Positions 7,914 through 56,645 of a DNA stretch of 64,000 nt are shown piece by piece. A model generated the notes under the pieces. The model was not told the DNA's origin and did no database searches. It worked only from the letters and a program-made list of their open reading frames with translations. Within the stretch, counting starts at the first letter, position 1, and each line of letters starts with the position of its first letter. The translations under genes and the position numbers were made by a program. The DNA comes from an uncultured Candidatus Micrarchaeota archaeon (GTDB taxonomy: Archaea > Micrarchaeota > Micrarchaeia > Anstonellales > Bilamarchaeaceae): assembly GCA_963714085.1 (NCBI GenBank), contig OY970229.1:480001-544000 (forward strand), written 5' to 3'.

Positions 7914-7920
7914 CTCTGAG

Positions 7921-9261: not shown

Positions 9262-9275
9262 CTACCTCTTGAAAA

Positions 9276-9977: not shown

Positions 9978-10757
9978 CTAAGCTGATCGCAGTAGCGCCG
10001 CATCCGGATACCGATAGGCGCTGCCGATGCCATCCTGCCGTACCAGTTCCGCAAGGGCTTGCGGTGAGAATGCAGCTACTGAGAGGGCCGCCGTCCCCAT
10101 GGCTGATTCTATGCCTTCGAGGTCGTCCACCAGGTGTATCGGCATCGCTGAAAAACTGCCCTTTCTTTTCAGGCATTCGATTATACCCACCTTTTCTAGG
10201 ATGGCGTCGCGGGTCAGTCCAACGCGCCTCAATTCCACGAGCCTGGCGCAAACATCCGGTGGTGCCCTGAAACCAATAACATCCGGCGTCCCTACTGACT
10301 CTGGTCTGTGGATGGTGAATTTCCGCGCCGATAGTCTGTGAACTAATATGTTTCTAAGTACATGCAAGCATCCGCCATCATCGAACAGGCGCTCTATCCC
10401 GTATTCGCCTGATTTGGGCCGATAGGATAGGATTCCGTGGCCAAACTCAGGAAATTCGGCTGCAAGGAAGATGAACAGGTCGGCAATCCCAGGCCTTGGG
10501 TGGAATACTCGCTCCGGCATTTCGAATCCGAGTGTGTTGTCAAGATCCCAGAAAACCATGGCCCGCCCTGCTTTTGCCCACTCTTGGCAGGTCCGGAAAA
10601 CCAGGATGGTGAATCCGATTTCGTTCCCGATGATTCCTGCCTTCGCGTCTTCTTTACGCGTGCAGATAAGCTGCTCCATCAGTGCTTTTTGCCGGCTTAA
10701 GAATTGCCGCAAGCGGGGCTGGACATTTTCGCTTATGGTTGATATGAGCGCACCCAT
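9978..10757 (-). CDS. HAD-like hypothetical protein
   Basis: VFWDLDNTLG (motif I), ILSYR (motif II-like), HLVDD (motif IV). Confidence 0.6.
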   Translation of the reverse strand: MGALISTISENVQPRLRQFLSRQKALMEQLICTRKEDAKAGIIGNEIGFTILVFRTCQEWAKAGRAMVFWDLDNTLGFEMPERVFHPRPGIADLFIFLAAEFPEFGHGILSYRPKSGEYGIERLFDDGGCLHVLRNILVHRLSARKFTIHRPESVGTPDVIGFRAPPDVCARLVELRRVGLTRDAILEKVGIIECLKRKGSFSAMPIHLVDDLEGIESAMGTAALSVAAFSPQALAELVRQDGIGSAYRYPDAALLRSA

Positions 10758-10802
10758 GTTAGTATCAGTGCAATTTCAAGTTTATAAATTATATGGTATT
10801 TA

Positions 10803-11840: not shown

Positions 11841-12315
11841 TCTCCTTTACCGCATCTTCCACCCGTCCGGAGATGTCGATGGTCGTGCCGTAATCTAACC
11901 TGGCAACCAGCCTGTAGACGTCTCTGACAGCCGTTTTTCCGTAAGGCGCGGCCCGCTTTCTGTCCCTTTCGATGCAGATCTCAAGCGGCGCATTCAGGCT
12001 GAATACGAAACCCCGGTAGGGGGACAAGCGGCCCATCAGGTCGTCTATGGCTTCCCTGTGGTAAAAGCAGGCGTCAAAAATCACAATCCGGTCGCCGTCA
12101 AGGTTTTTCCTTGCAGCCGGAGCCATCAGCCTGTCTGCTTTGATGAAGTTTTCAACAGGGATGCAGCCGATTTTCGTATCGATGACGTCCAATCCATTCT
12201 CGGCAAGGACGGCATCAACCGAAACATAAGCGGCTCCCATAGCTGCAGCTATTTTACTTGCAATGGTTGTCTTGCCGCAGCCCAGCGGCCCCCTTATGAT
12301 TACGAAATATGCCAT
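11815..12315 (-). CDS. P-loop small-molecule/nucleotide kinase (AAA_33/gluconate-kinase-like)
   Basis: IIRGPLGCGKTT, VIFDACF, APLEICIERDRKR. Confidence 0.85.
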   Translation of the reverse strand: MAYFVIIRGPLGCGKTTIASKIAAAMGAAYVSVDAVLAENGLDVIDTKIGCIPVENFIKADRLMAPAARKNLDGDRIVIFDACFYHREAIDDLMGRLSPYRGFVFSLNAPLEICIERDRKRAAPYGKTAVRDVYRLVARLDYGTTIDISGRVEDAVKEIISRLHEV

Positions 12316-12478
12316 GGCAGGTCCCAGCGTTCCGGATTGGTTGGTTTCCCTTTTGTATCCCCCTCCCTGGTATTAAATATTCGCCTCAGCCAGCCGCCAC
12401 GGGAGTCCAATTAAAATCTTACACATTTATTTACCTAACAAAACATTATTATACTTTTTCATGGTATAATTAGCAATC

Positions 12479-13660
12479 ATGAATCATTTGGCGTATGCAG
12501 GAAATACTGCAGCTGAAGTTGCGCAGAAAGGCGCTCCGGCAAAGACCAAGATTTCCCTACTGTCGAAAGGCATCGCCTTCGACCTGAGTCTATTCAAGGA
12601 CTTCCCAGGCACTTTCTATGATAACCAGTATGTGTACGGGAGGACCAGCCAGGGTGCCCTGCCTGAGCACAGACTGCCTCAGATACTGAGACTGGGGGAC
12701 GGCGTGGTTACCGCGCTTTTAAGGCGCCGGAACAGCCCCTGGCAACTGAAACTAGAGGGCGAAATTCCGCGGCTGTATTTTGGAGGCAAGTACGTCCAGG
12801 ACGTGGAGCTTCCGGAACGGCCCCCATATTTCGGAAAAGTGCTTGGCGACGGCATTCGGAGCGAATCAGTTATAGCTGTCGCTGGAGAGAGCACGCCAGG
12901 ATTCTTCCTTTATCCGAGATGCTTCTATTTCGGCAGGGGCGAGCCCTGTGGCTTCTGCTCGCTCAAAGGCAACCGTGCGACTTCCGGTAGAGCTATGGCC
13001 ATGGACTTCACGGAAGACCTCGTCGGCAAGGCGACGCGGCTTTTCCAGAATACCGCGTGGAAGGGCATCCCGGTAATATCCATCAGCGCCGGAACCCCAG
13101 CCACGGACGAGGAAAGCATGGAGCAGGTAATCAGGCTGATAAGGGCGGTCTACGACGCCCTCGACCCGAAACTGCCCATCCACGCCCTCGTCCATCCGCC
13201 GAACGACCTGAACCTCATAGAACAGTACAAAAGGGCCGGCCTCACGTCCATCGCTTTCAACCTCGAGGTTTTCGGCAGGGATGCTTTCGCGCGGCTCTGC
13301 CCGGGCAAGGAGAAATTCTATGGTTACGACAGGTGGCTCGAAGCGCTCCGAGTGGCGAGAGACGTTTTCGGCAAGTACTCCGCCTTCTGCGGCCTCGTTT
13401 GGGGTCTTGAGCCTGCCGCCAGCACGATGGAAGGCAACAGGTATTTTTTGGAGAACGGTATCGGCATCGCATCCAACATATTCCACGCGGACCAGCATTC
13501 GCTGATGGCCGCATATTCGCATCCTGCAGAGGAGCTGATACTGGAAGTCGCCATGAACCAGCGGCAGCTATACGCTGAGCATCCTGACGCGAGGACCATC
13601 TTTCCCGTCAGCATGAGGAGCACGCTCGACTGGGAAGTTAAACGGGGTGACCTTGGGTGA
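12479..13660 (+). CDS. Radical SAM protein with CX8CX2C motif
   Basis: RCFYFGRGEPCGFC, ISAGT, AFNLEVF, CPGK, GLVWGLE. Confidence 0.8.
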   Translation: MNHLAYAGNTAAEVAQKGAPAKTKISLLSKGIAFDLSLFKDFPGTFYDNQYVYGRTSQGALPEHRLPQILRLGDGVVTALLRRRNSPWQLKLEGEIPRLYFGGKYVQDVELPERPPYFGKVLGDGIRSESVIAVAGESTPGFFLYPRCFYFGRGEPCGFCSLKGNRATSGRAMAMDFTEDLVGKATRLFQNTAWKGIPVISISAGTPATDEESMEQVIRLIRAVYDALDPKLPIHALVHPPNDLNLIEQYKRAGLTSIAFNLEVFGRDAFARLCPGKEKFYGYDRWLEALRVARDVFGKYSAFCGLVWGLEPAASTMEGNRYFLENGIGIASNIFHADQHSLMAAYSHPAEELILEVAMNQRQLYAEHPDARTIFPVSMRSTLDWEVKRGDLG

Positions 13661-14787
13661 GCGTGTACGTCGATTGCGTGGGCTGCGAGCAGAGGAAACT
13701 GGACGCGCAGAGGCTCGTGAACTGCTTCAGGGCCAATGGGGCGGGGATTGTCAGCTCGGCTAGGAAATGCAACCACGCGGTGCTGGTGACCTGCGCAGTT
13801 GATTCTTCCAACGAAGAACGGTCGCTTTCCATGCTGGACGCAGTATCGCGGGAGTTACCGGAAGGTGCCGGGATGTACATCGGGGGGTGCCTGCCGTCCA
13901 TAAGCCCCGGCAGACTTTCCGGCTATCATCTTCACGGGACATTCTCTCCGCGGACTATGGGAAGCCTTGACGCTATGTTCAACTTTGCAGTGCCAATGGA
14001 TGCAATCGCCAGGCCGAATCGGTCAGTTTTCGATTCCAGTGCGGAACCGATCGGAGTGGTTTCCCCCAGGCAGGCTTACGACGATGCGAAAGCGGGGTTC
14101 AAGGTCGTAATAGACGACGGCTGCCTGATGGGCTGCTCGTACTGCGTGATAAAGCGAGCCACAGGCAGCCTAAGGAGCATGAGCGCGGAAAGCATCCTGG
14201 CGCAAATCAAGGATGGCATCTCAAGAGGCGAGAAGACGATAATGCTCATGGGCGGGGACGCTGGCGCCTACGGGAAGGACATCGGAACCGGGCTGCAGCG
14301 ATTGCTCTCCGACATCCTAGCAATTCCATCAGAGTTCAGGCTCTTCATACACGATTTCAACGTGAACTGGCTGATACGTGGCGCGGAAGAGTACCTCCGC
14401 GTCTTTTCATCCTCTGGCGGCAGGAAAATCGGCGCAATATGCTTCCCCATCCAGTCTGGCAGCGACCGCATACTGGCCTTGATGAAAAGGGGCCACACGT
14501 CCGGGAGCGCGGCCGAGGCGCTTAAGCAGGTCCGCTCTGTTTCGCCCGGCATGGGCCTAGGCACCCATGTGATAATCGGTTTTCCTAGCGAGGCTGACGC
14601 TGATTTTGCAGCTACGATGGGCATGCTCGAATACGTCGGTTTCGATTTCATCACCTGCTTCCCATACTCTGAGCATGCGTTGGCCGGTTCCGCTGCCCTG
14701 GCTGGAAAGGTCGGACCTGAAGCCGTGGAAGCCAGGTTCGAAAGAATATCCTCGGTGTTTGGGGACCGAGTGAAAATAGTGAGATGA
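13657..14787 (+). CDS. Methylthiotransferase-like radical SAM (UPF0004 + rSAM) lacking TRAM
   Basis: GCEQRKLD, TCAV, GGCLP; GCLMGCSYC; PIQSGSDRILALMKRGH; IIGFPSE; ends at 376 aa without TRAM. Confidence 0.88.
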   Translation: MSVYVDCVGCEQRKLDAQRLVNCFRANGAGIVSSARKCNHAVLVTCAVDSSNEERSLSMLDAVSRELPEGAGMYIGGCLPSISPGRLSGYHLHGTFSPRTMGSLDAMFNFAVPMDAIARPNRSVFDSSAEPIGVVSPRQAYDDAKAGFKVVIDDGCLMGCSYCVIKRATGSLRSMSAESILAQIKDGISRGEKTIMLMGGDAGAYGKDIGTGLQRLLSDILAIPSEFRLFIHDFNVNWLIRGAEEYLRVFSSSGGRKIGAICFPIQSGSDRILALMKRGHTSGSAAEALKQVRSVSPGMGLGTHVIIGFPSEADADFAATMGMLEYVGFDFITCFPYSEHALAGSAALAGKVGPEAVEARFERISSVFGDRVKIVR

Positions 14788-14791
14788 CGGC

Positions 14792-16675
14792 ATGGCGGTC
14801 TTGTGCGTTGCCAGGGATTTTACAGCGCTTCACGGTACGAGAAGCGTGAAAAGGGACGGGTTCAGGGCCGAGGTCAGGCTCTCCGGAAATATCTCCAAAG
14901 GTTTTGTCAGCGGCCTGGACCACGCAACGTTGCAGAAAGCCCTGGGTGAAACCGTGGCGCGGCTGGAAGGTTCGTATCTCGACGACGTGGTCGGCAGGGC
15001 AACCAACGAAAACATTGCCCTTTATATAATGCACTCGCTGGCCGGCCTGCCCGTGGGTTCCGTGCTGGTGAGGGAAGGCCAGGGGCAGTCAGTGGAAGTA
15101 TCTTCGTCAGACCTGGATTCAAGCGCTTATCCGGCATACTTATATTTGAGCAGGGCGCAGAGCTTGCTGCTCAGGGATAAGATTCTAGAAGCCACGGCTG
15201 CCGCGGAGGCAGCCATAAGGCTGGACCCCGCCGTGGCCGAAGCCCACAATCTCATGGGCAGATGCCAGAAATACCTTGGGCACAATGACCTGGCTGCTGA
15301 AAGCTATGCGAGGGCTGTGGTCCTGCAGCCTAATTTCGGAGATGCCTACCGTAACCTCGGGAATGCGTACCTTGAACTAGGCCGGTACAGTGAGATGGCC
15401 GAGGCGTTCGCCAGGGCGACGGAGCTGACACCCGGTTCGGCTTTAGCATTCAACAACCGCGGTTTCGGGTATCAGAAGCTTGGTGACCTCAGGCGGGCGC
15501 TTGAGTGCCATTCGAAGGCCATAGAACTTGACCCGCATTACGCTGAAGCCTATGAGGACAGGAGCAAGGTGCACGAGGCACTTGGAAATGCCGAGATGGC
15601 CAGGCAGGACGTCGCGACGGCGAAGGAACTGATATCGTCAGGAACTGACACCTATTCGCCAATCACGCCATATTATGATGGCAATGCCATGCCCAGATAT
15701 GTGCCGCCGGATCTGTATTACGGTATCGCAGTCTATAACGAGGAAGGGAACATTCGCAGGTGCCTGGATTCGCTTGAGCGGCAGAGCTTCGAGGGCAGGG
15801 TCGAGACCATCATCTGCCTCAACGGCTGCACTGACCGGAGCGAGAAGGAAGCCCATGAAGGCAAGGCGAAGTACCCAGGGCTGAACGTAAAAATCATACA
15901 CAGCAAAAAGAAGGGCAAGGCGTTCGCCCAGAACCAGATTATCCGCTCAATCAGGGACAGGACCGTTCCCATAGCCTTCATAGACGCCGATGTGGTGCCG
16001 GAAACTGACTGCATGGCAGTTCTGGAGCGGGAGTTACGCAGCCTGAAGCAGCTCGTTGCCGTGGGCACATGGCCTGAACCTGAACGCGGTCCACGGCAGT
16101 CCCTCTGGCAGCGATTCCTTTACTGGATATTGTATGCCCGGGCCTTTTACCCGCAAGCCGAAGTATCCGGGCATGACGTTTCTGCATACAAGCGCTTTGC
16201 CAGGCAAAACCCACAGCCCCTGGTGAGTCCTGAGTTCGAGATGCGCTCGAAGATATTCTTTCACGGTAGGACGTTCATGCTGAGGAATGCCTCCTTCTTT
16301 CGCCTGCCGGAAGATGCAAACGTGGCAGACGATACCTACCTGCCGAATTTCATCCATACGACATACGGTCCGGGTACCGTAAGGATAAGATACGACGCCA
16401 AGGTGCTCTACAAGCCATATCTCTCGCTAAGGGCGCATTTCAAGGCCTACTGGCGGGTGTACTCAGACCTTCGGAGAATGGACCTGGAAGGCGCTTTTGC
16501 GGAGTCTAGGAAGCTGGAAAAGACGAGGCTTGACTGGAAGTTCATATTTTCAAAAGGCATTGCCACGTCCCTGCAGTTCGCGATATACAGGTTCGTCGTA
16601 GGAGTTGAACGGGCGCTCTACCATATGCTTCCGGAAAAGAAGCTGGGCGAACTCTGGTATTATCAGAAAAAATAG
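14792..16675 (+). CDS. Fusion: degenerate QueD/PTPS-like domain + TPR repeats + GT2 glycosyltransferase
   Basis: N-terminal FTALH...GLDH..LQKAL...LEGSYLDD..RATNENIALYI; several TPRs (AEAHNLMG, DAYRNLGNAY, AFNNRGF, AEAYEDRS); IAVYNEEGNI, NGCTD, GKAFAQN, FIDADV. Confidence 0.8.
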   Translation: MAVLCVARDFTALHGTRSVKRDGFRAEVRLSGNISKGFVSGLDHATLQKALGETVARLEGSYLDDVVGRATNENIALYIMHSLAGLPVGSVLVREGQGQSVEVSSSDLDSSAYPAYLYLSRAQSLLLRDKILEATAAAEAAIRLDPAVAEAHNLMGRCQKYLGHNDLAAESYARAVVLQPNFGDAYRNLGNAYLELGRYSEMAEAFARATELTPGSALAFNNRGFGYQKLGDLRRALECHSKAIELDPHYAEAYEDRSKVHEALGNAEMARQDVATAKELISSGTDTYSPITPYYDGNAMPRYVPPDLYYGIAVYNEEGNIRRCLDSLERQSFEGRVETIICLNGCTDRSEKEAHEGKAKYPGLNVKIIHSKKKGKAFAQNQIIRSIRDRTVPIAFIDADVVPETDCMAVLERELRSLKQLVAVGTWPEPERGPRQSLWQRFLYWILYARAFYPQAEVSGHDVSAYKRFARQNPQPLVSPEFEMRSKIFFHGRTFMLRNASFFRLPEDANVADDTYLPNFIHTTYGPGTVRIRYDAKVLYKPYLSLRAHFKAYWRVYSDLRRMDLEGAFAESRKLEKTRLDWKFIFSKGIATSLQFAIYRFVVGVERALYHMLPEKKLGELWYYQKK

Positions 16676-16697
16676 CTGTGGATGGAGGGTGAGAATC

Positions 16698-18017
16698 ATG
16701 CAAAAGAAGCTGAAACGAGGGCCTCCGGCCCATGAACGTCCGATGTGGCGCCTTGCACGAAACATGACGCCTTGCGCGACGGAGATAGTGAGTGGAAAGG
16801 GCATATATTTCAGGGACAGCAGTGGCAAGGAGTACATGGACCTGACCGCCCAGACACTCAACCTGAACCTCGGCCACCGCCATCCGTCCATAATGCGGGC
16901 CGTGCTTGCGAAGCTGCGTGAAGACGGATTTACCTACTACGTGTCGCCCAGATTCGGAAACCGCCACGTCTCGCAATTGGCGCAGAAGCTGGTTTCGCTG
17001 GCTCCTGAGGGTCTCAACAGGGTGAACCTGCACTTGTGCAACGGAAGCGACGCGAACGAGGACGCGATAAAGCGGGCGAGGAAGTACCACGACGGAAAGA
17101 GGATGACGATAATCTCGTTCAAGGGAAGTTTCCTGGGGACTTCCTGCGAATCCATCAGCGCGTCCGGTGGCAATTTCTACAAGGAGGCGTGCCTTGGTGG
17201 CTCAGGGCAATATGTCTTTCTGGACTCCGTGATGCCGAATAGGATACCGAAGGGGTCCAGCCTCGAAGAGGAGGTCCAATCCAGGCTCATGGACGTGGAA
17301 CAAACTATCAAAAGAAGGAGGGACATAGCCGGAATCATAATGGAGCTAGTCCCTTTCAACGCAGGAGTCATCGTCCTTCCGAGGGAATATGTGAAGGGGA
17401 TAGAGAGGATATGCAAGGAGAACGACGTGGCGCTGCTGGTGGACGAGGTCCAGACCGCCTTCGGCTGGTGCGGCGACGTATTCGCGTCGAATGTATATGG
17501 CATAAGGCCCGACGTGATAACCCTGGCCAAGGGGATGACGGCCGGCTTCCCTGCCCTGGCGGCAACAGTCTTCAAGGCGAAATACGACGTCCTGACGGGC
17601 GGGACTTCCGAGAACACATTCGGCGCTCAAACGCTCGGCTGCGTGGCGACGATCGCGAACATCGACTATCTGGTTTCGTCCGGCATAATGGATGCGATAC
17701 CAGCAAAACACGCCTTGTTCATGGAGCACCTGGAAAGGATGAAAGACGCGTATCCGTTCATAGGCGACGTCAGGGGAATAGGGCTGATGTTCGGAATAGA
17801 CTTCGTTCGCGCTGACGGAACGCCCGACATGGAGACGAACATCGACGTCTACCAGGCGGCGTTCATGCGTGGATTGTCAGTAAACGTCTCGACCTCCCAA
17901 AGGGGAAAACACAACGTGATAAGCCTCAAGCCGCCCCTGACGATAACATTAAGGGAAATAAACGAGGCTATGAGTCGTCTGGGCGATGCCATGCGCTCCG
18001 TAGCGAAGAAAAGATAA
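16698..18017 (+). CDS. Class III PLP-dependent aminotransferase (divergent)
   Basis: GKGIYFRD..GKEYMD, NLGHRHP, LLVDEVQTAFG, PDVITLAKG, GDVRGIGLM, KPPL; ATG 16698 after SD GGAGGGTG. Confidence 0.92.
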   Translation: MQKKLKRGPPAHERPMWRLARNMTPCATEIVSGKGIYFRDSSGKEYMDLTAQTLNLNLGHRHPSIMRAVLAKLREDGFTYYVSPRFGNRHVSQLAQKLVSLAPEGLNRVNLHLCNGSDANEDAIKRARKYHDGKRMTIISFKGSFLGTSCESISASGGNFYKEACLGGSGQYVFLDSVMPNRIPKGSSLEEEVQSRLMDVEQTIKRRRDIAGIIMELVPFNAGVIVLPREYVKGIERICKENDVALLVDEVQTAFGWCGDVFASNVYGIRPDVITLAKGMTAGFPALAATVFKAKYDVLTGGTSENTFGAQTLGCVATIANIDYLVSSGIMDAIPAKHALFMEHLERMKDAYPFIGDVRGIGLMFGIDFVRADGTPDMETNIDVYQAAFMRGLSVNVSTSQRGKHNVISLKPPLTITLREINEAMSRLGDAMRSVAKKR

Positions 18018-18162
18018 TAGAGCTGCACAGTTTTTGGCATGCCTTTGACACGTCAGTTCTTTGCCAAACTTTTTTCCTAAAAAGGTAGGTGCAGAAGATA
18101 CCGAGCCATAAGAAGAACCTTGCCCACGAGATCCCAGACTAGGGCTCGGAGCATCCGCTTAG

Positions 18163-18336
18163 AGATTAGAACCAAAGTTCGAATCTTCAAGAGTGCATTT
18201 CGTTTTGTCAGATACAACAAATATGTCGAAGAATGATGCTAAAATAATTAGAAAATAATTCAGCAGAAAAGATTGGAATCATTGGTTCGGGTCTTTTTCT
18301 TGCAGTCCCGAACCTTTGATTCTATGCAGGAGGAAG
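18163..18336. repeat. Conserved right end of cassette B abutting tRNA-Leu
   Basis: Homologous to ~9460-9634. Confidence 0.8.
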
Positions 18337-18409
18337 GATTTGAACCTTCGAAGGCACTAAGCCAGCGGATCTTAAGTCCGCCGCGTTTTCCGGACTTCGC
18401 TACTCCTGC
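18325..18409 (-). tRNA. tRNA-Leu(TAA)
   Basis: GCAGGAG...GCGGA-CT-TAA-GA-TCCGC, long variable arm, GGTTCAAATCC, CTCCTGCA. Confidence 0.96.
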
Positions 18410-18436
18410 ATGATTAGAAAATATTTATCCAGACTG

Positions 18437-19387
18437 CTATAAAAGCCTCGCTTTTTTGCCGTCGAAATAGATGTCCTCCTCGAACCGGACGCCGAAATCT
18501 TCGAAATACGCGCTCGGCTCTATGGCCATGGTCGCCCCGGCGAGCTTGTCCTTCGACTTCATGCTGAGGCGGGGGTATTCGTGCACCTCCAGGCCGATGC
18601 CATGGCCGATGGCGTGGGGCAGCTCGGGAAGATTGTGCCTCTTGAACAGCTTTCTGGAGAACGCCGTCAACTCCGAGCCGGTGTCCAGCTCCGGCATCGC
18701 GTCGATTATCTCGTTGAACACTTCCTGGAGCTTCAGGTAGACCGCCTTCTTCTTCTCCTCGCCCATGAAGAAGCACCTCGTGAGGTCCGATGAGTAGTAT
18801 TCGGCGCGCACGCCGAAATCCACGAGCACCATGCTGTTTATCTTCGCATTCCCGGTCCGGTAGTGCGGGAAGGAGGAATTGCGGTCTGCGGCCACTATTG
18901 CCTTGAACGACACGTCCAGGTCGCGCTCCAGGGTCCCGGCCATGAGCTGCTCCCTGACCTGTGATTCGGTCATGCCCTTCTTTATGTCCAGGGATTGCAA
19001 TATCTCCCTGGCGCTGTGCACCGCCTTCTTTACCTTGTCCACCTCCTCCATGGTCTTGGCCATGCGGCGCCTGCAGAGCTCCTCCGAGACGTCCACCGGC
19101 GTGCAGAATTTCTTGAGATGCTCCGTGAGGCGGAAGTACATGCTGCTGCCGTCGACGCCCACCTGCCTGCCCTTGGCCAGCTTCCGCAGCTCGGCTATCG
19201 GGTCCTGATATGGGACGACGCTGCCGCTGAACTGCTCCTTGGCTATCTTGAGGTTCATCCGCGGCACGAGCAGCACCTGCGTGCTGCCGTCCACGAAAAG
19301 GAAGGAGTGGTCGATGTCCACGTTCGAGTAATGGTAGAAGTTGGCGTTGAAATGCTCGTCCCTGTAGAGAAGCAGAGGGTATTTCAT
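18437..19387 (-). CDS. Xaa-Pro aminopeptidase (M24 family)
   Basis: PHY, VDFG, SDLTR, HAIGHGIGLEVHE, AIEPSAY, GVRFEED. Confidence 0.93.
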   Translation of the reverse strand: MKYPLLLYRDEHFNANFYHYSNVDIDHSFLFVDGSTQVLLVPRMNLKIAKEQFSGSVVPYQDPIAELRKLAKGRQVGVDGSSMYFRLTEHLKKFCTPVDVSEELCRRRMAKTMEEVDKVKKAVHSAREILQSLDIKKGMTESQVREQLMAGTLERDLDVSFKAIVAADRNSSFPHYRTGNAKINSMVLVDFGVRAEYYSSDLTRCFFMGEEKKKAVYLKLQEVFNEIIDAMPELDTGSELTAFSRKLFKRHNLPELPHAIGHGIGLEVHEYPRLSMKSKDKLAGATMAIEPSAYFEDFGVRFEEDIYFDGKKARLL

Positions 19388-19476
19388 GGTGGAGAATCCC
19401 GCCTCAGGATTAAATTGCTTGCGGTCGGGCCGTGCTCACGCATCCATCTCGTGGGAGCCGGAATCGTCCTCGAGGA

Positions 19477-19860
19477 TCATACGAACCCCACCTTGGCCTT
19501 AGACCTCAGGCCCACGACCCTCAGGCGCTCGGCTTTGAGCCGCTGCTTGAGCCCGCGGTCGTTGGTGCACACCACCGCGCGGTTCTGCCTGGCGTACTCG
19601 AAGAGCCAGTCGTCCACCGGCAGCTTCGACTCCACCTGCTTCGCCTTCTCCCCCCTGGATTCTAGGATCTTCAGCGCGAAGCGCGCCGCGGCCCCGGTCC
19701 TGCCCGGATTCCTGGCGATGCCCCGGAGCTCGCCGACGACCTTGGAGGGCACCACGAGCGTGAAGGGCCCGTCCAGCAGGCGCTCGAGCTCGGTGAACAC
19801 GTCCACCTTGAACTGGTAGGGTACGAGAAGGAAATTGGTGTCCATAATCACTTCGGTCAT
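19477..19860 (-). CDS. PIN-domain ribonuclease (Fcf1/Utp24-like)
   Basis: IMDTNFL, VVGEL, VDD, VCTNDRGLK. Confidence 0.9.
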   Translation of the reverse strand: MTEVIMDTNFLLVPYQFKVDVFTELERLLDGPFTLVVPSKVVGELRGIARNPGRTGAAARFALKILESRGEKAKQVESKLPVDDWLFEYARQNRAVVCTNDRGLKQRLKAERLRVVGLRSKAKVGFV

Positions 19861-20045
19861 GGCAGTTATTAGAAGCTAATGGGATTAAAATAGAATAGGT
19901 GGAATATATACGTTACGGGAGCGAAAATGGCATTTGTTGGTATATACGGTTAGAAGAGGAGTTAAAAGGAATGTTTAAAAATGTTTTGGTTCATAAACAC
20001 TTTAGTACAAAAATTTAAACAACAATAGAGAGCGGGTGATGAGGG

Positions 20046-21587
20046 ATGAAAACAATGAAAACTGAACAAACAGGATGTAAAGTTGCTGAAAGGACGACTG
20101 GACCGACGACATCAACTCGTGGGTTCAAGAATAGAATGCTTATCACGACTGTCGGCGCCGCAGGCCTTGCGATATTATCGACGGCGTCGTGCAGCAAAAA
20201 TTCGGGAACGAGCGAAGACGCGGGCGCGTGCCAGACACTGAAGGACGATGCCGGCTTTACTACCTGCTCTCCGGGTTGCGAGATGGGCTTGGTTCCGACA
20301 AGCTCGAATGATGGCGCGGTGTCCACGGCTAAATGCGTGCCGAAGAAGGCTGTAGACGCTTCTACCAGTGAGGCTTCCGCCACGGATGTTTCAGGAGGCG
20401 AGGCTGCGGAGGAATCAGAGGCAGGATTAGTTTCACCGCAGGATGCAACTGCACTGGATGCTACTAATAAGAGTGATGCTGCAGGTCCGATGTGCAGCAC
20501 TGCGACCAAACTCAGGGCCAATGCATCGGTCGGTGGCGCCTGGGAGATGAACGGCTTCCCGTGCAACACCAATGGGAGCCCGTCTGAATTCACTGACGGC
20601 GATAGCCCCAAGTTGAAGACTGATACAGGCGAGAAAGTGCCTTGTTCCGCCGCAGTCACGAATCAACCGGAACTGACGGTCAATGTCACATGCGAGGTAC
20701 CGTCGCAAGATGGAGGCGTGGTGCAGGTGGTATTCACTGCGGTTCAAGGCGGATGCGTAAAATCTGCGGGCGGAGTTAGCCAGAAGTGCCCCGATGACCA
20801 GGACATAGCATTGGATGGCAACAGCACTCAAGTCTCCCAGAATGGTTCTGAGTCGGTGATGAAGGTCACCGGATCACAGCAGTCCGATAGGCTGATGCTA
20901 TCGACCTCCGGCTCTGCTGCTGGCTCTGCGGCCACCACGAAGGGCCTGGACTCGACGGGCAACGTCAAGGCGACGGGATCTTCGTGTGGTGTCGGTGCCG
21001 ACGGCTCAGTGGCCTTCGGAGGCCAGATTGCCGGCCCGACAAGCATGACTTTCTGCTGCGCTCCATTGCCGCTCGGGCAGTCAGTGCCTGCGGGCGCTGT
21101 CGCGCTCCAAGTAGAGGGCAGCCAGACCAATATGGGACCCAACTCCGCGGCGACTGCAAGCCCGGTATTCGGTGGCGCTGTCTTGCCGGACATCCCGGTG
21201 GGCGGTTCATTCGTAGTGGCCGGCCAGGTGACGACGCTCAAGGCCGCGATGACCAATGGCACTTATGGCGCGATCGAGATCGACGGCCAGGCGGGAACCT
21301 GTGTAATCCCAGCTGGGCAGGACAGCAACACTGCATGCGGTCAGACGTTCAATGGCGGTGCGTTGGCACTGCCTGCGGCGAGTGCGGTACACTCGACTGG
21401 CGCATGCCCGGTGACGGGCCAGGACGGGGGAGCTAAAGACGCCCCGAAAGGAGCAGACGTTGCTCCAACCGGACCGGTCGCTGATGCGAGCGCGGCGAAA
21501 CCGGCGGATGCGAGCACTGCTCCGGCACCCGTGGTCGACGCCACCGCAGTTCAGAGCGCGGCCCCGGTTGATGCAGGATCGGACTGA
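20046..21587 (+). CDS. Secreted or lipoprotein-like Cys/Gly/Ser/Thr-rich protein with DAG/DGG/DAS motifs
   Basis: Hydrophobic stretch ending in LAILSTASC; many Cys; low-complexity C-terminus. Confidence 0.7.
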   Translation: MKTMKTEQTGCKVAERTTGPTTSTRGFKNRMLITTVGAAGLAILSTASCSKNSGTSEDAGACQTLKDDAGFTTCSPGCEMGLVPTSSNDGAVSTAKCVPKKAVDASTSEASATDVSGGEAAEESEAGLVSPQDATALDATNKSDAAGPMCSTATKLRANASVGGAWEMNGFPCNTNGSPSEFTDGDSPKLKTDTGEKVPCSAAVTNQPELTVNVTCEVPSQDGGVVQVVFTAVQGGCVKSAGGVSQKCPDDQDIALDGNSTQVSQNGSESVMKVTGSQQSDRLMLSTSGSAAGSAATTKGLDSTGNVKATGSSCGVGADGSVAFGGQIAGPTSMTFCCAPLPLGQSVPAGAVALQVEGSQTNMGPNSAATASPVFGGAVLPDIPVGGSFVVAGQVTTLKAAMTNGTYGAIEIDGQAGTCVIPAGQDSNTACGQTFNGGALALPAASAVHSTGACPVTGQDGGAKDAPKGADVAPTGPVADASAAKPADASTAPAPVVDATAVQSAAPVDAGSD

Positions 21588-47790: not shown

Positions 47791-49014
47791 ATGGCGAAGA
47801 ACATGAGAGTTATGCTATGCAATCCGTATTTTCCGAGGAAAGTGAAGGGGGCGCCGCTTAGCCTTCTTTATCTTGCGGGTTCCCTGAAACACCGGACATC
47901 GGGATTCAAAGGCGAAGTCTGCCTGCTTGACTTGAACATAACCAATGGGCCGGATAAGGAACTGGCGGATGGATTGAAGGGGTTCAAACCAACGCATTTC
48001 GGGATAACCAGGTTCACTCCGAATGCTTCCGAATCTGCGAATATCCTTGCGAAAGTGAAGGAATATGACGAGAGAATAGTCACAATCACGGGCGGAGCGC
48101 ATGAGATAACCTACGGGTCGGACAGCCTCCGGAGATTAGGGAAGACCGCCGACCACATCGTATGCGATTTTGATGGCATCGAAGCGTTTCAAAGGATTCT
48201 CGGGGCCGGTTCGGGCCTTCACACCTTGGACATACTTCCTGATTACGGTTTGATACTGCAAAACAAGGAGAAATACCAATTCGATGACCTTTTCAACAGG
48301 CCCATGACGCAGATGATAACTTCGACAGGATGCAATTGCGCTTGTTCGTTTTGCGGTGTCAAGGCGCTTAAGTTAGGGGATCTCGGTGTCGTGATGCGCA
48401 ATATAGAGCACATCGTTTCACTCGGCTATGGGGCCATTGTTTTTGACGACGGAAATTTCATCGGGGACAAGAACCGGACGCTCGAGCTCGCCAGGAGGAT
48501 AAAGGAAGGCGGCCTTTGCTTCGATTGGAGCTGCCAGACCAGGGCGGATAGCGTCGATGAAGAGGTCCTGGATGCGATGAAAGGAAGCGGTTGCACGTAT
48601 ATCTGCACCGCACTTGAAAGCGCGGATTCGCGTGTACTCAAGGCGATATCCAAGAAACTCGGCGTGTCCGATGTGATCAGGGCCGTCGACCTTATCAAAA
48701 AGTCCGGGATGAAGGTCGGCTTGTATGTGATATTCGGTCATCCTCTCGAGATAAGCCACCCCGAGATAGCGGTTGCCACGCTGGATATGGTCGAAACCCT
48801 CAGACCGGATTTCCTTTCAGTCTCCATATTTGCCAGATACCGGGGCGTATTGCCTATGGAAGATGTTAACCGGGAGAAGGATTGGCTTTATTTTGATGAG
48901 GGATGGGGAGCTCATCATGATGCTTCGCTTGCGTATGCGATAAAGACGAAAGAAATGATTGAGGAGCGAATCGGGAAAAAACCAGAGATATGGGACTCGA
49001 TCAAAAGGTTTTAG
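47791..49014 (+). CDS. B12-binding-domain radical SAM protein
   Basis: PLSLLYLAG, TGGAH, GCNCACSFC, FDDGNF, QTRAD, ALESAD. Confidence 0.88.
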   Translation: MAKNMRVMLCNPYFPRKVKGAPLSLLYLAGSLKHRTSGFKGEVCLLDLNITNGPDKELADGLKGFKPTHFGITRFTPNASESANILAKVKEYDERIVTITGGAHEITYGSDSLRRLGKTADHIVCDFDGIEAFQRILGAGSGLHTLDILPDYGLILQNKEKYQFDDLFNRPMTQMITSTGCNCACSFCGVKALKLGDLGVVMRNIEHIVSLGYGAIVFDDGNFIGDKNRTLELARRIKEGGLCFDWSCQTRADSVDEEVLDAMKGSGCTYICTALESADSRVLKAISKKLGVSDVIRAVDLIKKSGMKVGLYVIFGHPLEISHPEIAVATLDMVETLRPDFLSVSIFARYRGVLPMEDVNREKDWLYFDEGWGAHHDASLAYAIKTKEMIEERIGKKPEIWDSIKRF

Positions 49015-51219: not shown

Positions 51220-51262
51220 TCTTCTTTTCTATTTTTATTCTCTTTCTCTTATCCTAGTCATA

Positions 51263-52534
51263 ATGTGCTATGCGATTCCAGGGAGGATCGTCTCCATAAA
51301 CGGCCGTACCGCCATTATAGACTACTTTGGAGAGAGGAAGGAGGCAATTGTTATTGGGACCCTGGGGTTCAAAGCCGGGGACTACGTCTATGCCCAGGGC
51401 GGGATAGTGGTAGACAAGGTCGCGGAATCCGAAGCGCTGCCAATCCTCAAGGCATGGAAGGAGCGTTTCTTTGAACTGAAGGAAAGGGACGCTGAAACGA
51501 CAAAAACAAAGGATAAATGTGCGTTCGTCCTAGACAAGGCGGAATCCGGGGCCCTGCTCACGAGAAGCGAGATAGAGGCCATACTCGCGATCCAGGACAA
51601 GAGATCGCTCCGCTCTCTTTATTCGGCAGCGAACCGCGTCCGTTCGCGCGAGCTCGGCAATTCCTGCTGCGTCCATGGCATCTTAGAGTTCTCTAACCAC
51701 TGCAGGAACGCATGCGCCTACTGCGGGATAAACAGGGGCAACACCGCGCTGAAGCGCTACAGGATGCCTGCGGACGAGATAGTCGCGGCAGCGGAATATG
51801 CCACGCGCTCACTTGGTTTCAAGGCCCTGGTCCTCCAGTCCGGCGAGGACGACCATTATACGGACGACATGCTCGTGGGCATCGTGAAGCGAATACGCGA
51901 ACGGTGCGGAATCCTGGTATTCATGTCCGTAGGCGAGCGTTCTATCGAATGTTATAAGAGGCTCTACGATGCCGGTGCTTACGGCGTGCTTCTCAGGTTC
52001 GAGACCTCGAACCAGAAAATATACTCGTTGATGCGGCCAGGGAAGAAACTGGAGGACCGCCTGGCCCTCATCAGGAAGCTGAAATCCCACGGCTTCATAG
52101 TGGCCACGGGCTTCCTCATCGGGCTTCCTGGAGCCACGGGGCAGGACCTGATAAACGACGTCCTGCTTACCAAGAGCCTGGGATCGGACATGTATTCCTT
52201 CGGCCCGCTCATCCCCCATCCGCAGACTCCGCTCGCAGGGACGAAGCAGATATCACCTGATTACGCGCTCAAAGCCATCGCGCTCTCGCGTCTGGTCGAC
52301 CCGAAGGCCAAGATCCTCGCGACAACCGCGCTCGAGACGCTCGAGAAGGGAAAGAAGGAAGGGCTTCTCGCAGGCGCGAACTCGCTCATGATAAACGTGA
52401 CTCCGGCGCATTACCGGCGGGATTATGATTTGTACCCTGGCAAGACAGGTGACATGAAGACGCAGGAGGAGATCCGAAAGACGCTTGAGCTCCTGTATTC
52501 GCTAGGAAGGGCGCCCACTGACCTAGGAAGATGA
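51263..52534 (+). CDS. hydE: HypC/HupF-like domain fused to HydE-like radical SAM
   Basis: N-terminal MCYAIPGRI...AIIDYFG...GDYVYAQGG...EA..IL; then CRNACAYC, LQSGED, LLRFETSN, PHPQTPL, ATTALETL, GANSLMINVTP..YR..YDLYPGK. Confidence 0.82.
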   Translation: MCYAIPGRIVSINGRTAIIDYFGERKEAIVIGTLGFKAGDYVYAQGGIVVDKVAESEALPILKAWKERFFELKERDAETTKTKDKCAFVLDKAESGALLTRSEIEAILAIQDKRSLRSLYSAANRVRSRELGNSCCVHGILEFSNHCRNACAYCGINRGNTALKRYRMPADEIVAAAEYATRSLGFKALVLQSGEDDHYTDDMLVGIVKRIRERCGILVFMSVGERSIECYKRLYDAGAYGVLLRFETSNQKIYSLMRPGKKLEDRLALIRKLKSHGFIVATGFLIGLPGATGQDLINDVLLTKSLGSDMYSFGPLIPHPQTPLAGTKQISPDYALKAIALSRLVDPKAKILATTALETLEKGKKEGLLAGANSLMINVTPAHYRRDYDLYPGKTGDMKTQEEIRKTLELLYSLGRAPTDLGR

Positions 52535-53901
52535 CGGATATGTATTCCCACGACGAGAAGAGGATAAACGGCCTGCTCGCAGGCTCAGGAGCCCCGGACG
52601 ACGAGAGGCTTGGAAGGATCCTGAAAAAGGCCGAATTGAAGAAGGGCCTTGACCTGGAGGAATCCGCCGCATTGTTGCAAATCCGTGACAGCGGGCAGCT
52701 GGAGCGCCTCTTCGCATCCGCCGGGAAGGTGAAGAACGACATCTACGGGAACAGGGTGGTGCTGTTCGCCCCGCTTTACATATCCGATTACTGCGTTAAC
52801 GACTGCGCGTACTGCGGGTTCCACCGCAGGAACAACGCCGCGAGGACACGGCTCACGCTGGAGGAGATAGGGAAACAGACCGAACGCATAATAGGCATGG
52901 GGCACAAGCGCATACTCCTCGAGGCCGGCGAGCATCCGGACACGACCATAGATTACGTGTGCGATGCCATAAGGCAGATATACAGGACGAAGCCGAGCAA
53001 GGGCGAGATCAGGCGCGTGAACGTCAACATAGCGGCCACCACGAAGGAGAACTACGCGAGGCTGAAGCAGGCGGGGATCGGCACCTACCAGCTGTTCCAG
53101 GAGACGTACCACCGCAGGACCTATGAGGCGTTGCATAAGGGGCCCAAGGCGGACTACGAGCGCCAGGTCACGGCGCACGGGCGCGCGTTCGAAGCTGGGA
53201 TAGACGATTACGGCATGGGCGTGCTGTTCGGACTCTACGACCACAGGTTCGAGGTCCTCTCGCTCCTGGCCCATGCGAAATATATGGAGCAGCACTATGG
53301 CGTGGGCCCGCACACGATATCCGTGCCCAGGTTCCGCCCGGCGCCATCCGTGGATTTCAGCCCGGCCTCCCTGGTCTCGGACCAGGACTTCCTCAAGCTA
53401 ATCGCTGTGATACGGCTCTCGCTCCCTTACACGGGAATGATAATCTCCACGCGCGAGACCCCGGAAATCAGGAAAAAGGCGTTCGGGATAGGCATATCCC
53501 AGGCCAGCGCGGGCTCCTGCACCTCGGTCGGCGGATACGGGGGCGGCGGCATCGCGGGGCAGTTCGAGATCGGCGACCACCGGGACGTGGACTCGGTGGT
53601 ACGCTCGCTCATGTCCCAGGGCTGCATACCCTCGTTCTGCACCGCCTGCTACCGCTCGAAGCGCACCGGAGACGCGTTCATGCGCCTGGCCAAGGCAGGT
53701 GACATCCACTACCTCTGCAAGCCCAATGCCATACTGACGTTCAAGGAGTTCGTCACTGATTATGCGGGCCAGGAGACCAGGAAGATGGGCGATGCGCTCA
53801 TAAGAAGGGAAGTCGAGAAGATAGAGAGCGACGAGAGGAGAACCGAGACGAAAAAACGCCTCGTGAGGATAGAAAAGGGCGAGCGGGACCTGTTCTTCTA
53901 G
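52531..53901 (+). CDS. hydG: [FeFe]-hydrogenase maturase HydG
   Basis: FAPLYISDYCVNDCAYCG, IRRVNVNIA, GTYQLFQETYH, GPHTISVPR, PSFCTACYR...LCKPNA. Confidence 0.93.
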   Translation: MTDMYSHDEKRINGLLAGSGAPDDERLGRILKKAELKKGLDLEESAALLQIRDSGQLERLFASAGKVKNDIYGNRVVLFAPLYISDYCVNDCAYCGFHRRNNAARTRLTLEEIGKQTERIIGMGHKRILLEAGEHPDTTIDYVCDAIRQIYRTKPSKGEIRRVNVNIAATTKENYARLKQAGIGTYQLFQETYHRRTYEALHKGPKADYERQVTAHGRAFEAGIDDYGMGVLFGLYDHRFEVLSLLAHAKYMEQHYGVGPHTISVPRFRPAPSVDFSPASLVSDQDFLKLIAVIRLSLPYTGMIISTRETPEIRKKAFGIGISQASAGSCTSVGGYGGGGIAGQFEIGDHRDVDSVVRSLMSQGCIPSFCTACYRSKRTGDAFMRLAKAGDIHYLCKPNAILTFKEFVTDYAGQETRKMGDALIRREVEKIESDERRTETKKRLVRIEKGERDLFF

Positions 53902-56645
53902 CGGTACATACCCTCGGGCTTTTTAGCCGGGGGCGGTGGCGGGGGCTCCTCGCCGCCTTCGCCGCGCTCGCCATAGACCGAGAGGAACTCGTCGTATTCG
54001 CCCAGCATCCCCTTCGTGATGGACGGCTTCCTCTTCCTGAGCAGGGAGAGCACGTTCTCAGTAGCGAGCTTCCCCTCCTGGCCCGCTATCCTGCCCCTGA
54101 GGACGACCATCTTCGCGTCGCGGCAGACGAGCGCTATGTCCGCGCCGCTGAAATCCGGGGACGCGTCCGCCAGTGCATCCAGGTTCACTCCGGAAGCGAA
54201 CTTACCCAGATACAGCCTGAACAGGTCCACCCTCCCCTTCCTGTCCGGCTGGGGTATGTAGAATATCTTGTCGAACCTGCCGGGTCGGAGCAGCGCGGGG
54301 TCGAGGAGCCCGGGCTTGTTGGTCGCGGCTATGACGACCACGCCTTTTAGCTCCTTGAGCCCGTCCATCTCCGTGAGGAACTGTCCGACTATCTCCGAGG
54401 ACGTCACGCCCCTGGCAGGCGCGAACGTCTCGATCTCGTCTATGAATATTATGGCCGGCGGGTTCTCACGGCCCCTGTTGAAGGTCTCCTTTATCACCGA
54501 GACCGCCTGCGTGTAGCCCCGCTGCATTATCTCGGCCCCTGAGAGCGTCTGGAACGAGGCTTTGAGCTCGTTGCAGGCCGCCTTCACTATGAGCGTCTTT
54601 CCAGTCCCGGGCGGACCGAATAGCAATATGCCCTTGCTCGGCTTGATCTTCATCTCCTTCATGAGGTCCTCGTGCAGCAGCGGGACCTCTATGGTCTCAA
54701 GGAGCGCCTTCTTGACCTCGTCCAGACCGACAACGTCCTCCCATCTCACGACATCCTCCGCCGGCTTCACCTCTTTCTCAGCGCCCACCCTGCGCTCGAA
54801 GTCCAGCCTGAACTGCTCGTACTGGTCCAGCGCCGCCAGGGATGTGCTAGGCTTCACCGCCTCGATGACGGCCATGAGGTGGGCCATGCTCACGGGCACG
54901 ATGGCGTTAGCCTTCAACGCGTCCTTGCTGGCCAGCTTCACCGCCTCGTTCACGATGTTCTTTATGTCCGCGCCCGAGAAGCGCTCGGTCTTCTGGGCGA
55001 GCCTGTCGAAATCCACGTCCTTGTCATAGGGGAGCTTCTTCAGGTCCACCCTGAATATCGCCTCCCGCGCCTTCTTGTCCGGGAGGTGCATGTATATGAT
55101 CTTGTCCAGCCTGCCCGGGCGCAGAAGGGCGGTATCGAGCTGCGCGGGCAGGTTGGTCGTGCCGATCACCAGTAGCGGGACCTTGGTCTTCGTCGCCCCG
55201 TCCATCTCGGTCAGGAGCGTGGAGAGCACGCGGGGCGCTACGTCGTCCGAGGAGTACGCCTCCCTCTTCTTGCCTATCGCGTCGATCTCGTCGAAGAACA
55301 GGATCGTGGGCTTCCCCGACTTCCTAGCGTCGTCGAAGGCGTCCCGGACGTTCTTCTCGCTCTCCCCGAGCCATTGCGACATTATCTCCGTGGTCTTGAT
55401 CTCTATGAAGAAATACCCGATCTCCCTGGCGAGAGCGCGCATGAGCATGGTCTTGCCGGTCCCTGGCGGGCCGAATAGCAATATGCCGGAGGGCGGCTTG
55501 ATGTTGTACGCGAATGCGAGCTCCTTCTTGTCCAGGGGCATGGCTATGGAGTCGCGGAGCTCCTGCTTGACGTCCTCGTAGCCGCCCACGTCGTCCATGG
55601 ATTGCTCGGCACCGCCGACGGACATGTCCTTGAATCCGAACTTCCCGAAGCTTTTGAGGCGCTCCTGGCTCTGCGCCTCCTTCTCCCTGCTTATATGCAG
55701 GCCGAACTGCTCCAGGACGCCAAGGACTATTATGGAGACCACGACCGCAGAAGCGAGGCCTAGCGGCGGACCCTGGTTTGAGAACGCACTTATGATGTAA
55801 TAGAAAGGCAGGACGCTGAGAAGGGCGAGCGAGGACATCAGCTGCGGCCTGCGCTTTATCAGGCCCGAAAGGTAGGATGTGAGCCAGAGCGCGACCGCCC
55901 AGGCGATCATCTGGAGGAAGCCGGAATCCGAGAGCAGGATGAGCGACAGGTTCTTGATCACCTGCGCGATGGCGCTGTCCATCTCGTTCAGCACAGTTAT
56001 CTGCACCATGGAGGAAAGCGTGTTGGAGAAGGTCGCTGGCAGCGACATGATGTCCACGGCCGGGCGGCTGAGCATGAGCGGCTGGTATCCTGGCTGGTAT
56101 AAGGTCGTCACTATGGGCATGTAGGCCGAGTTCGAGACCAGCCAGATGGAGGAGAGCAGGAGTATGAGGAGGACCGACGGTACGGATATCAGTATGGATT
56201 TCTTCGACCCGAAGTGCATCGCGGCCATTGCCATGCCTAGGATGGTTACCCAGCCGAATATGGGGATCTGCGGGAAGAAGAAGGGCGCGAGCACGAGGAC
56301 CTCCAGGGCCGCAATCACCATCCAGTTGTCCCACACCTCGAACATGGCTATTGCCAGGAAAAGCAGGAACACCCAGCCGAACACGGCGGACTGGAACGAC
56401 ACCGCGGGCAGCGCCATGAGCATGCCCAGCACGACCGCTATGGGCGGATGCCTGTATGCCACCGCGCCGCACACGAGGGCCAGCACGGGCACGAGATAGA
56501 ACGGATAGAACGGCACCGTGCCCAGCAAGAACAGGGCGCCGAAGAAAACCAGCACGGCGGCCCAGAACTTCTCGTTCTCCTGGGCGAGTTTCACGTAGGC
56601 CCTGACCTTCTGACCGGCCATGGTCTTGGTTTCGACTACTGGCAT
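53898..56645 (-). CDS. Membrane-anchored double AAA+ ATPase (CDC48-like) with multi-TM N-terminus
   Basis: ~320-aa hydrophobic N-terminus; two GPPGTGKT / DE / LRPGR modules. Confidence 0.9.
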   Translation of the reverse strand: MPVVETKTMAGQKVRAYVKLAQENEKFWAAVLVFFGALFLLGTVPFYPFYLVPVLALVCGAVAYRHPPIAVVLGMLMALPAVSFQSAVFGWVFLLFLAIAMFEVWDNWMVIAALEVLVLAPFFFPQIPIFGWVTILGMAMAAMHFGSKKSILISVPSVLLILLLSSIWLVSNSAYMPIVTTLYQPGYQPLMLSRPAVDIMSLPATFSNTLSSMVQITVLNEMDSAIAQVIKNLSLILLSDSGFLQMIAWAVALWLTSYLSGLIKRRPQLMSSLALLSVLPFYYIISAFSNQGPPLGLASAVVVSIIVLGVLEQFGLHISREKEAQSQERLKSFGKFGFKDMSVGGAEQSMDDVGGYEDVKQELRDSIAMPLDKKELAFAYNIKPPSGILLFGPPGTGKTMLMRALAREIGYFFIEIKTTEIMSQWLGESEKNVRDAFDDARKSGKPTILFFDEIDAIGKKREAYSSDDVAPRVLSTLLTEMDGATKTKVPLLVIGTTNLPAQLDTALLRPGRLDKIIYMHLPDKKAREAIFRVDLKKLPYDKDVDFDRLAQKTERFSGADIKNIVNEAVKLASKDALKANAIVPVSMAHLMAVIEAVKPSTSLAALDQYEQFRLDFERRVGAEKEVKPAEDVVRWEDVVGLDEVKKALLETIEVPLLHEDLMKEMKIKPSKGILLFGPPGTGKTLIVKAACNELKASFQTLSGAEIMQRGYTQAVSVIKETFNRGRENPPAIIFIDEIETFAPARGVTSSEIVGQFLTEMDGLKELKGVVVIAATNKPGLLDPALLRPGRFDKIFYIPQPDRKGRVDLFRLYLGKFASGVNLDALADASPDFSGADIALVCRDAKMVVLRGRIAGQEGKLATENVLSLLRKRKPSITKGMLGEYDEFLSVYGERGEGGEEPPPPPPAKKPEGMYR

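Follow-up and report, generated by a model that had tools for sequence, protein, structure and literature searches.

In the canonical route (E. coli; T. kodakarensis HypC, structures 2z1c and 3vyr), the Fe(CN)2(CO) unit of [NiFe] hydrogenases, with its carbon monoxide (CO) and cyanide (CN) ligands, is built by HypCDEF, and the cyanide comes from carbamoyl phosphate via HypEF. HydG, HydE and HydF (T. italicus 4wcx; T. maritima 3cix/7o1o) serve the maturation of [FeFe] hydrogenases, and HydE and HydG are otherwise known from that process only. The available text of PMC6802093 assigns HydG to this different machinery, that of the [FeFe] enzymes, and describes HypX, an aerobic CO source that uses formyl-tetrahydrofolate and works alongside HypCDEF. 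Here we analysed a stretch of Micrarchaeota DNA, positions 480,001–544,000 of contig OY970229.1 (assembly GCA_963714085.1, forward strand; "the window" means all 64,000 nucleotides (nt)), in which a gene for a HypC domain fused to a HydE-type radical S-adenosylmethionine (SAM) enzyme runs into hydG. It seems fairly likely that HydG and this HypC-HydE fusion replace HypCDEF and together provide the Fe(CN)2(CO) unit independently of it; function is inferred from sequence, gene context and co-occurrence.

The preliminary description of this DNA had read the locus as a HypC-HydE fusion gene overlapping hydG by 4 bp, with a HypC-like N-terminus that retains Cys2 and has Gln for the usual His, a HydE-type radical SAM partner, and a HydG that keeps its dangler-iron His and a C-terminal CxxC...C motif. 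Each of these features was recovered in the present analysis. The two genes and the sequences at their boundaries are as follows.

51263..52534, plus strand: hypC-hydE fusion gene, 423 amino acids (aa) (open reading frame (ORF); Pfam PF01455, PF04055 and PF06968; NCBIfam TIGR03956)
52531..53901, plus strand: hydG, 456 aa (ORF; TIGR03955)
52531..52534, plus strand: ATGA, the 4-bp overlap of the fusion stop and the hydG start codon (DNA sequence)
51220..51262, plus strand: AT-rich 43-bp spacer from the stop codon of an H+-pyrophosphatase gene to the fusion ATG (sequence)

The ATGA overlap suggests translational coupling of the fusion and hydG. Inside the 43-bp spacer, TTTTTATT is located about 25 nt upstream of the fusion ATG; it is a candidate TATA-like promoter of archaeal type.

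The HypC identity of the N-terminus was checked with hidden Markov models. Pfam HupF_HypC (PF01455) matched residues 1–65 with 46.0 bits against a cut-off of 28.5, covering all 65 model positions, and residues 1–67 aligned to T. kodakarensis HypC 2z1c with an E value of 6.8e-12; NCBIfam TIGR00074 gave 34.9 bits, below its cut-off of 48.

51263..51457, plus strand: HypC domain, aa 1–65 (Pfam; alignment to 2z1c)
51266-51268, plus strand: Cys2 codon of the HypC domain
51395-51397, plus strand: Gln45 codon, at the His position of HypC proteins
51458..51526, plus strand: linker, aa 66–88, beginning with the conserved helix-like WKERFFELK (family alignment)

As in the canonical HypCDEF system, this is a HypC domain of one family with an N-terminal Cys; the N-terminus reads MCYAIPG, and Cys2, the iron-ligand position, was present in all 34 fusion proteins that were compared. 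In contrast to that system, the domain is not a stand-alone HypC of about 75–100 aa but is attached to a radical SAM enzyme of 340 aa, and Gln45 stands opposite the conserved His (VIVH/VLIH motif; GDxVLVHxG) of 2z1c and 3d3r, with Gln at this position in 34 of 34 fusions. The available text of PMC10556730 reports that the conserved His is important for HypD binding, so the change to Gln would fit a loss of HypD.

The fused HydE domain gave 240 bits against the T. maritima HydE structures and scored just over the cut-off of the NCBIfam HydE model TIGR03956. Its residues were mapped via alignment to T. maritima HydE, and the 34 fusion proteins were compared with five canonical HydE.

51527..52516, plus strand: HydE-type radical SAM barrel, aa 89–418 (alignment to T. 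maritima HydE)
51665-51679, plus strand: CCVHG, family signature of the fused HydE
51701-51724, plus strand: CX3CX2C of the fused HydE
51920-51922, plus strand: Phe220 of the fused HydE
51983-51985, plus strand: Gly241 of the fused HydE
52190-52192, plus strand: Met310 of the fused HydE, kept
52388-52390, plus strand: Met376 of the fused HydE, kept

In common with HydE of the [FeFe] route, the fusions retain CX3CX2C (C147, C151 and C154; 34/34), Met310 and Met376 at the positions of T. maritima Met224 and Met291 (34/34 each), and Thr355 at that of Thr269 (31 proteins, with Ser in the other 3). Met224 and Met291 are the two iron-relay methionines according to the accessible parts of PMC10114646 and PMC11826987. 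Other positions differ from the [FeFe] enzyme: Arg54 is replaced by His138 in 34 of 34 fusions, Thr134 by Phe220 in 32 (Ile in 2) and Arg155 by Gly241 in 31 (Ala in 3), whereas all five canonical HydE have Arg, Thr and Arg. In addition, a Cys-Cys pair without a T. maritima equivalent lies just before His138, with Cys135 in 32 proteins (Ser in 2) and Cys136 in all 34. In the part of a computational study that was available (PMC11826987), Arg54, Thr134, Arg155 and Thr269 of T. maritima HydE are listed as contacts to the cyanide ligands of a modelled di-iron product. We therefore propose that the product pocket has been remodelled in such a way that the iron unit would stay mononuclear and would not be paired into a di-iron unit for HydF. 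In a maximum-likelihood tree, the 34 fused HydE domains formed one clade (support 99/96) apart from the five canonical HydE. Both its residues and its place in the tree mark the fused HydE as a distinct paralogue that has been remodelled but keeps the radical core.

HydG, by comparison, is near-canonical and all its cluster motifs are kept, which is the same as in the [FeFe] route; it scored 530.9 bits with TIGR03955 (cut-off 312.15) and 536 bits with T. italicus HydG 4wcx.

52792-52815, plus strand: CX3CX2C of HydG (aa 88–95)
53311-53313, plus strand: His261 of HydG, in GPHTISVPR
53638-53718, plus strand: C-terminal CX2CX22C of HydG (aa 370–396)

The available text of a review names a conserved HydG His as the dangler-iron ligand (PMC10114646), and by alignment together with that statement His261 would be this ligand.

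To establish what else the organism encodes, six-frame family searches were run on its genome, one contig of 1,571,539 bases free of N, with a marker completeness of 87.65%. There was no match to HydA (PF02906), HypD or HypB; HypE, HypF and HypA were not found above cut-off, nothing came close to the cut-off of HydF, and the sole PF01455 match was the fusion itself. The preliminary description had noted that the window has no hydF, hydA or other hyp genes; this is confirmed and holds for the whole genome as well. Because the genome is a single contig in which no other Hyp or Hyd gene was found, it represents a clean case. It differs from genomes with the canonical HypCDEF system in having no HypD, HypE or HypF, and the cyanide of the fusion route cannot come from carbamoyl phosphate via HypEF; it differs from those with the [FeFe] route in having neither HydF nor HydA.

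The genome encodes one [NiFe] hydrogenase (G000:C1:166336-168113), about 364 kb from the module. Its large subunit (432 aa; PF00374) contains RICGTCSAAH and DPCMSCATH followed by a C-terminal extension of 7 residues, so that the presumed client, as in the HypCDEF system, is a [NiFe] large subunit with four Cys ligands; a small subunit of 160 aa (PF01058) is encoded beside it. The best NCBIfam match of the large subunit was the group 3b sulfhydrogenase alpha subunit ShyA, with 272.6 bits, far below the cut-off of 700. Beta and gamma diaphorase subunits, which are present in 16–18 of 80 related loci, were not recognised beside this hydrogenase. An adjoining, divergently oriented ORF of 131 aa matched maturation-protease families weakly, below their cut-offs. 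The hydrogenase region is minimal (G000:C1:166336-168556; L011:8337-10559), with a small subunit, a large subunit and the protease-like ORF on the other strand. Upstream of the small subunit, two minus-strand ORFs (253 and 267 aa) had no Pfam match and probably shadow the weak protease-like ORF on the plus strand. The ORFs at L011:11334-12248 and 12400-13053 were considered as EamA and DUF6390 genes, a pair described below, and proved to be neither. A Methanomassiliicoccales-type Mvh hydrogenase was also considered and dropped, because the hydrogenase is 3b-like and those relatives that have names belong to the Micrarchaeota.

We then compared 41 genomes of the same order, including this one. 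HypD was found in none of them. Eighteen encode HydA, and 18 have a match to the [NiFe] large subunit above the cut-off, of which 16 are strong matches in frames of 386–459 aa; G005, G006 and G010, whose frames of 520–529 aa match PF00374 only weakly and at the N-terminus, were not counted as [NiFe]-positive. The HydA-positive genomes all lacked a [NiFe] large subunit. A full-length fusion followed by HydG was present in six genomes, all of them [NiFe]-positive and HydA-negative, and a seventh, 73% complete, had a HydG-type match only. None of the 18 HydA-positive relatives had the fusion. Unfused HydE was found in two HydA-positive relatives, within HydE-HydF-HydG operons; most HydA-positive relatives in this sample showed no HydE or HydG.

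More widely, a word-indexed search returned 2945 proteins at E <= 1e-10, and 118 of the best 120 listed have both PF01455 and a radical SAM domain. A scan with one genome per species found 389 stretches that encode a fusion relative. The best 80 of these 389 loci all match from query residue 1–7, that is, with the HypC domain included. Among them, the archaeal sources are Micrarchaeota, Aenigmatarchaeota, Nano/Woesearchaeota and Altiarchaeota, and the bacterial sources are Omnitrophota, Gammaproteobacteria, Planctomycetota, Chlamydiae, Patescibacteria, Margulisiibacteriota, Elusimicrobia, Spirochaetota and Thermodesulfobacteriota. There are also 17 HypC-HydE-HydG triple fusions of 805–946 aa (P0121–P0137), which speaks for a joint function of the three parts; the named sources of these are Nitrospirae or Omnitrophota. 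Three further HydE-HydG fusions have no HypC domain.

For the analysis of neighbours, ORFs of the best 80 loci and of the present locus were clustered by BLASTP, and the commonest clusters were identified with Pfam. The neighbours and the number of loci, out of 81, in which they occur are as follows.

Second HydE/HydG-type radical SAM gene (HydG where checked): 51 loci
[NiFe] large subunit: 21 loci
Small subunit: 20 loci
HycI protease: 20 loci
3b-type gamma subunit: 18 loci
3b-type beta subunit: 16 loci
Rubrerythrin: 9 loci
DsbD_2-like membrane protein: 7 loci
HypA: 6 loci
HypB: 6 loci

The typical bacterial gene order is (hypA-hypB)-beta-gamma-small-large-hycI-(membrane protein)-hypC-hydE, and HycI, HypA and HypB thus accompany the fusion in many bacterial loci as they accompany HypCDEF. 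HydA, HydF, HypD, HypE and HypF were not among the 12 common neighbour clusters that were identified. In seven gammaproteobacterial loci (e.g. L031:8417-9136), the DsbD_2-like membrane protein, of 239 aa, is encoded between hycI and hypC-hydE.

The same counts bear on whether the module could instead serve an enzyme not yet recognised, by building an Fe-CO/CN or other organometallic cofactor, its link to [NiFe] hydrogenase being indirect. In this genome and in other Micrarchaeota loci the module lies among housekeeping genes (pyrophosphatase, AAA ATPase), as would be expected of such a role; in many bacterial loci, however, it lies on the same strand directly after the hydrogenase and protease genes, and the only known clients of HypC are [NiFe] large subunits. 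Whole genomes speak in the same sense. Among 50 fusion-bearing genomes picked from the 80 loci, in which matches over the cut-off were counted, 48 have a [NiFe] large subunit; the two without one agree with the idea of an unrecognised client, which we nevertheless consider improbable.

In the same 50 genomes, HydG was found in 46, HypD in 1, HypE in 1 (the same genome as HypD), HydA in 5 and HydF in 3. A genome inventory, which the preliminary description had called for, here of hydA, hydF, hypD, hypE and large subunits, shows a fusion that co-occurs with [NiFe] large subunits and rarely with HypD, HydA or HydF. Of the two roles which that description had offered, the routing of HydG-derived Fe-CO/CN to a [NiFe] enzyme is supported both by the gene neighbourhood and by this co-occurrence. 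Some of the large subunits in fusion genomes are Ech-type (group 4), about 390 aa long. Nine of ten regions with such subunits were covered (all but L199), and all nine subunits keep both CGICSxxH and DPCxxCxxR; one annotated Ech-type cluster contains HycI and complex-I-like subunits. The intact 3b-like and Ech-type subunits in fusion genomes indicate that the module accompanies both enzyme types.

The other role, in which the module matures an [FeFe] hydrogenase and the HypC domain takes the place of HydF as carrier, appears very improbable. Besides the [FeFe] pedigree of HydE and HydG, it could draw on the five fusion genomes with HydA and on a survey whose available text reports that [FeFe] archaea mostly lack HydEFG (PMC11216029), so that odd maturation routes are to be expected. 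However, HydA was found neither in the genome studied here nor in the six fusion relatives nor among the 12 identified neighbour clusters, the fusion was found in none of the 18 HydA relatives, and a canonical HydE is retained alongside the fusion where a genome has both HydA and HydF. Three bacterial fusion genomes have HydA and HydF, and each of them has two HydE-type genes: a canonical HydE in a frame of 352–365 aa with 308–340 bits, near hydA or hydF in two of the three, and the fusion with 244–265 bits. Each has a single HydG over the cut-off. With two HydE and one HydG per genome, HydG appears to be common to both routes, and HydE seems to have been duplicated and specialised. One locus with both routes is L092 (G088, Omnitrophota), in which positions 6444–20711 carry Rex, NfnAB-like genes, HydG, HypC-HydE, a second Rex, HydF and NuoE/F-like genes. 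HydA, canonical HydE and a [NiFe] large subunit follow within the next 15 kb, so that both maturation routes stand around a single HydG.

Nine of the 16 genomes in the order that are clearly [NiFe]-positive have neither the module nor HypD, yet their large-subunit motifs are intact. This raises the possibility that the module is an accessory supplier, for example of CO only or of pre-ligated iron, to an unknown core route common to the relatives without the module or HypCDEF. The lack of HypA and HypB in the genome studied here, which means that other unknown factors must exist anyway, fits this as well. However, seven of the nine genomes have a DUF6390 gene (PF19927) beside the hydrogenase. 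In the loci L099–L107 of relatives (e.g. L104:11041-12668), an EamA-type permease gene and DUF6390 adjoin the hydrogenase genes; PF19927 was found in 7 of the 41 genomes, all among these nine, and in no fusion genome (0/6) and no HydA genome of the order. In the remaining two, a possible divergent DUF6390 relative is encoded downstream of the large subunit, behind a small ORF. The L105 ORF has weak Pfam matches to PF01455 and PF19927, and the L101 ORF has no Pfam match and is assigned from its position and a poor alignment only. In the set of 50 fusion genomes, DUF6390 was found in 1. This genome, G055 (L046 and G055:C12:40830-44314), has the fusion and also a DUF6390 gene next to a large subunit; the two modules may really coexist there, or the bin may be mixed. 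Among 80 metagenome DUF6390 loci (L114–L193), 42 are at least 6 kb long, of which 29 have a large subunit and 34 a permease; the fusion or HydG was found in none of the 80 within the fetched flanks.

The EamA-DUF6390 pair resembles the fusion module in being placed after hydrogenase and protease genes, in having a HypC-like domain and in occurring in genomes without HypD. The C-terminal part of DUF6390 is HypC-like (PF01455, E 2e-4; profile match to 2z1c, E 0.006; Atlas structure rows), and Cys24, His128, Cys152 and His207 are invariant. It differs in that no radical SAM enzyme or HydG is present, the partner is a membrane permease, and the HypC-like part is C-terminal with its His kept. The module and EamA-DUF6390 are near-exclusive alternatives at the same place in hydrogenase clusters, which supports a maturation role for both. 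This distribution looks like substitution and not like a shared core. Moreover, HypE and HypF, the only known cyanide source of [NiFe] maturation, are missing, while HydG makes both CO and CN. We accordingly regard an accessory role as unlikely, although less so than the two alternatives weighed before.

Several observations weigh against the replacement of HypCDEF by HydG and the HypC-HydE fusion. According to the available text of PMC10114646, the known product of HydG has Fe(CO)2(CN), and a further cyanide is set free. The [NiFe] site needs Fe(CN)2(CO), a different ligand count; two HydG turnovers do supply enough CO and CN, but the data do not account for the partitioning of these ligands. 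In the window, the module is flanked by the pyrophosphatase gene on one side and an AAA ATPase gene on the other, and the hydrogenase is not adjacent. Residues 91–408 of the fusion score only marginally above the TIGR03956 cut-off (259.4 vs 254.6 bits), and some other fusions score below it (244–245 bits). HydG was not seen in four of the 50 fusion genomes (G063, G066, G067 and G071) and a [NiFe] large subunit not in two (G044 and G052), all being drafts of unknown completeness, and one draft, G072, combines the fusion with HypD and HypE. Finally, the nine relatives without the module or HypD mean that a lack of HypCDEF alone does not show that the module supplies the ligands, and the existence of [NiFe] hydrogenases without any known CO/CN source weakens the argument from absence.

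If HydG and the fusion do replace HypCDEF, the pathway could proceed as follows. HydG would cleave tyrosine and form an Fe-CO/CN-cysteine synthon, as in [FeFe] maturation. The HydE domain would take up the synthon and, through radical SAM chemistry, release the iron unit from its cysteine carrier, its barrel acting as a scaffold in the place of HypD. The tethered HypC domain would receive the iron unit on Cys2 and hand it to the apo large subunit, here that of the group-3b-like enzyme at G000:C1:166336-168113. Insertion of Ni and C-terminal processing would come later through other factors, which in many bacteria would be HypA, HypB and HycI. Such a module would have in common with HypX a CO ligand from a route outside HypCDEF; it would differ from HypX in taking both CO and CN from tyrosine with HypCDEF absent.

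A wider statement can be made, on which we find the evidence evenly balanced: that this is a complete, tyrosine-fed and HypCDEF-independent Fe(CN)2(CO) pathway in DPANN archaea and many anaerobic bacterial phyla, serving 3b-type and Ech-type enzymes, and is one of at least two replacements for HypCDEF, the other being EamA-DUF6390.

Other genes lie around the module in the window. At 47791-49014 (plus strand), two genes upstream of the fusion, a 407-aa radical SAM protein with a B12-binding domain is encoded, the best matches of which were PhpK/AprD4/HpnJ-type families, all far below their cut-offs. At 53898-56645 (minus strand), convergent with hydG, lies the gene of a 915-aa protein with two Cdc48-type AAA domains, preceded by an extended hydrophobic N-terminal region (about 330 aa). 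The gene order pyrophosphatase-module-ATPase recurs in six to seven related loci.

A full-text literature search, with most subscription journals outside its scope, found no paper describing the fusion or DUF6390, which agrees with the earlier statement that this architecture is not known from characterised systems. Papers that pair "group 3b" with "HydG" mean the sulfhydrogenase gamma subunit and not the maturase, and a Clostridium acetogen paper considered as a precedent for the lack of HypCDEF reports that HypA/B, not HypCDEF, are missing. The 2024 survey of archaeal [FeFe] hydrogenases does not mention HypC in its main text (PMC11216029); its supplementary table of archaeal HydE/HydG matches may list these genes.

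Taken together, the locus points to an undescribed second way of building the [NiFe] iron-carbonyl-cyanide centre. If this is true, HydG and a remodelled HydE feeding a HypC domain would join the [FeFe] and [NiFe] pathways, and [NiFe] maturation would not be universal. To our knowledge, the source of the CO ligand in anaerobes has not been settled, and the route would offer a concrete and testable one, namely tyrosine. For heterologous hydrogenase production, two genes would then be able to stand in for four Hyp genes, and the HydE/HydG homologues in archaea without matching [FeFe] enzymes would be explained.

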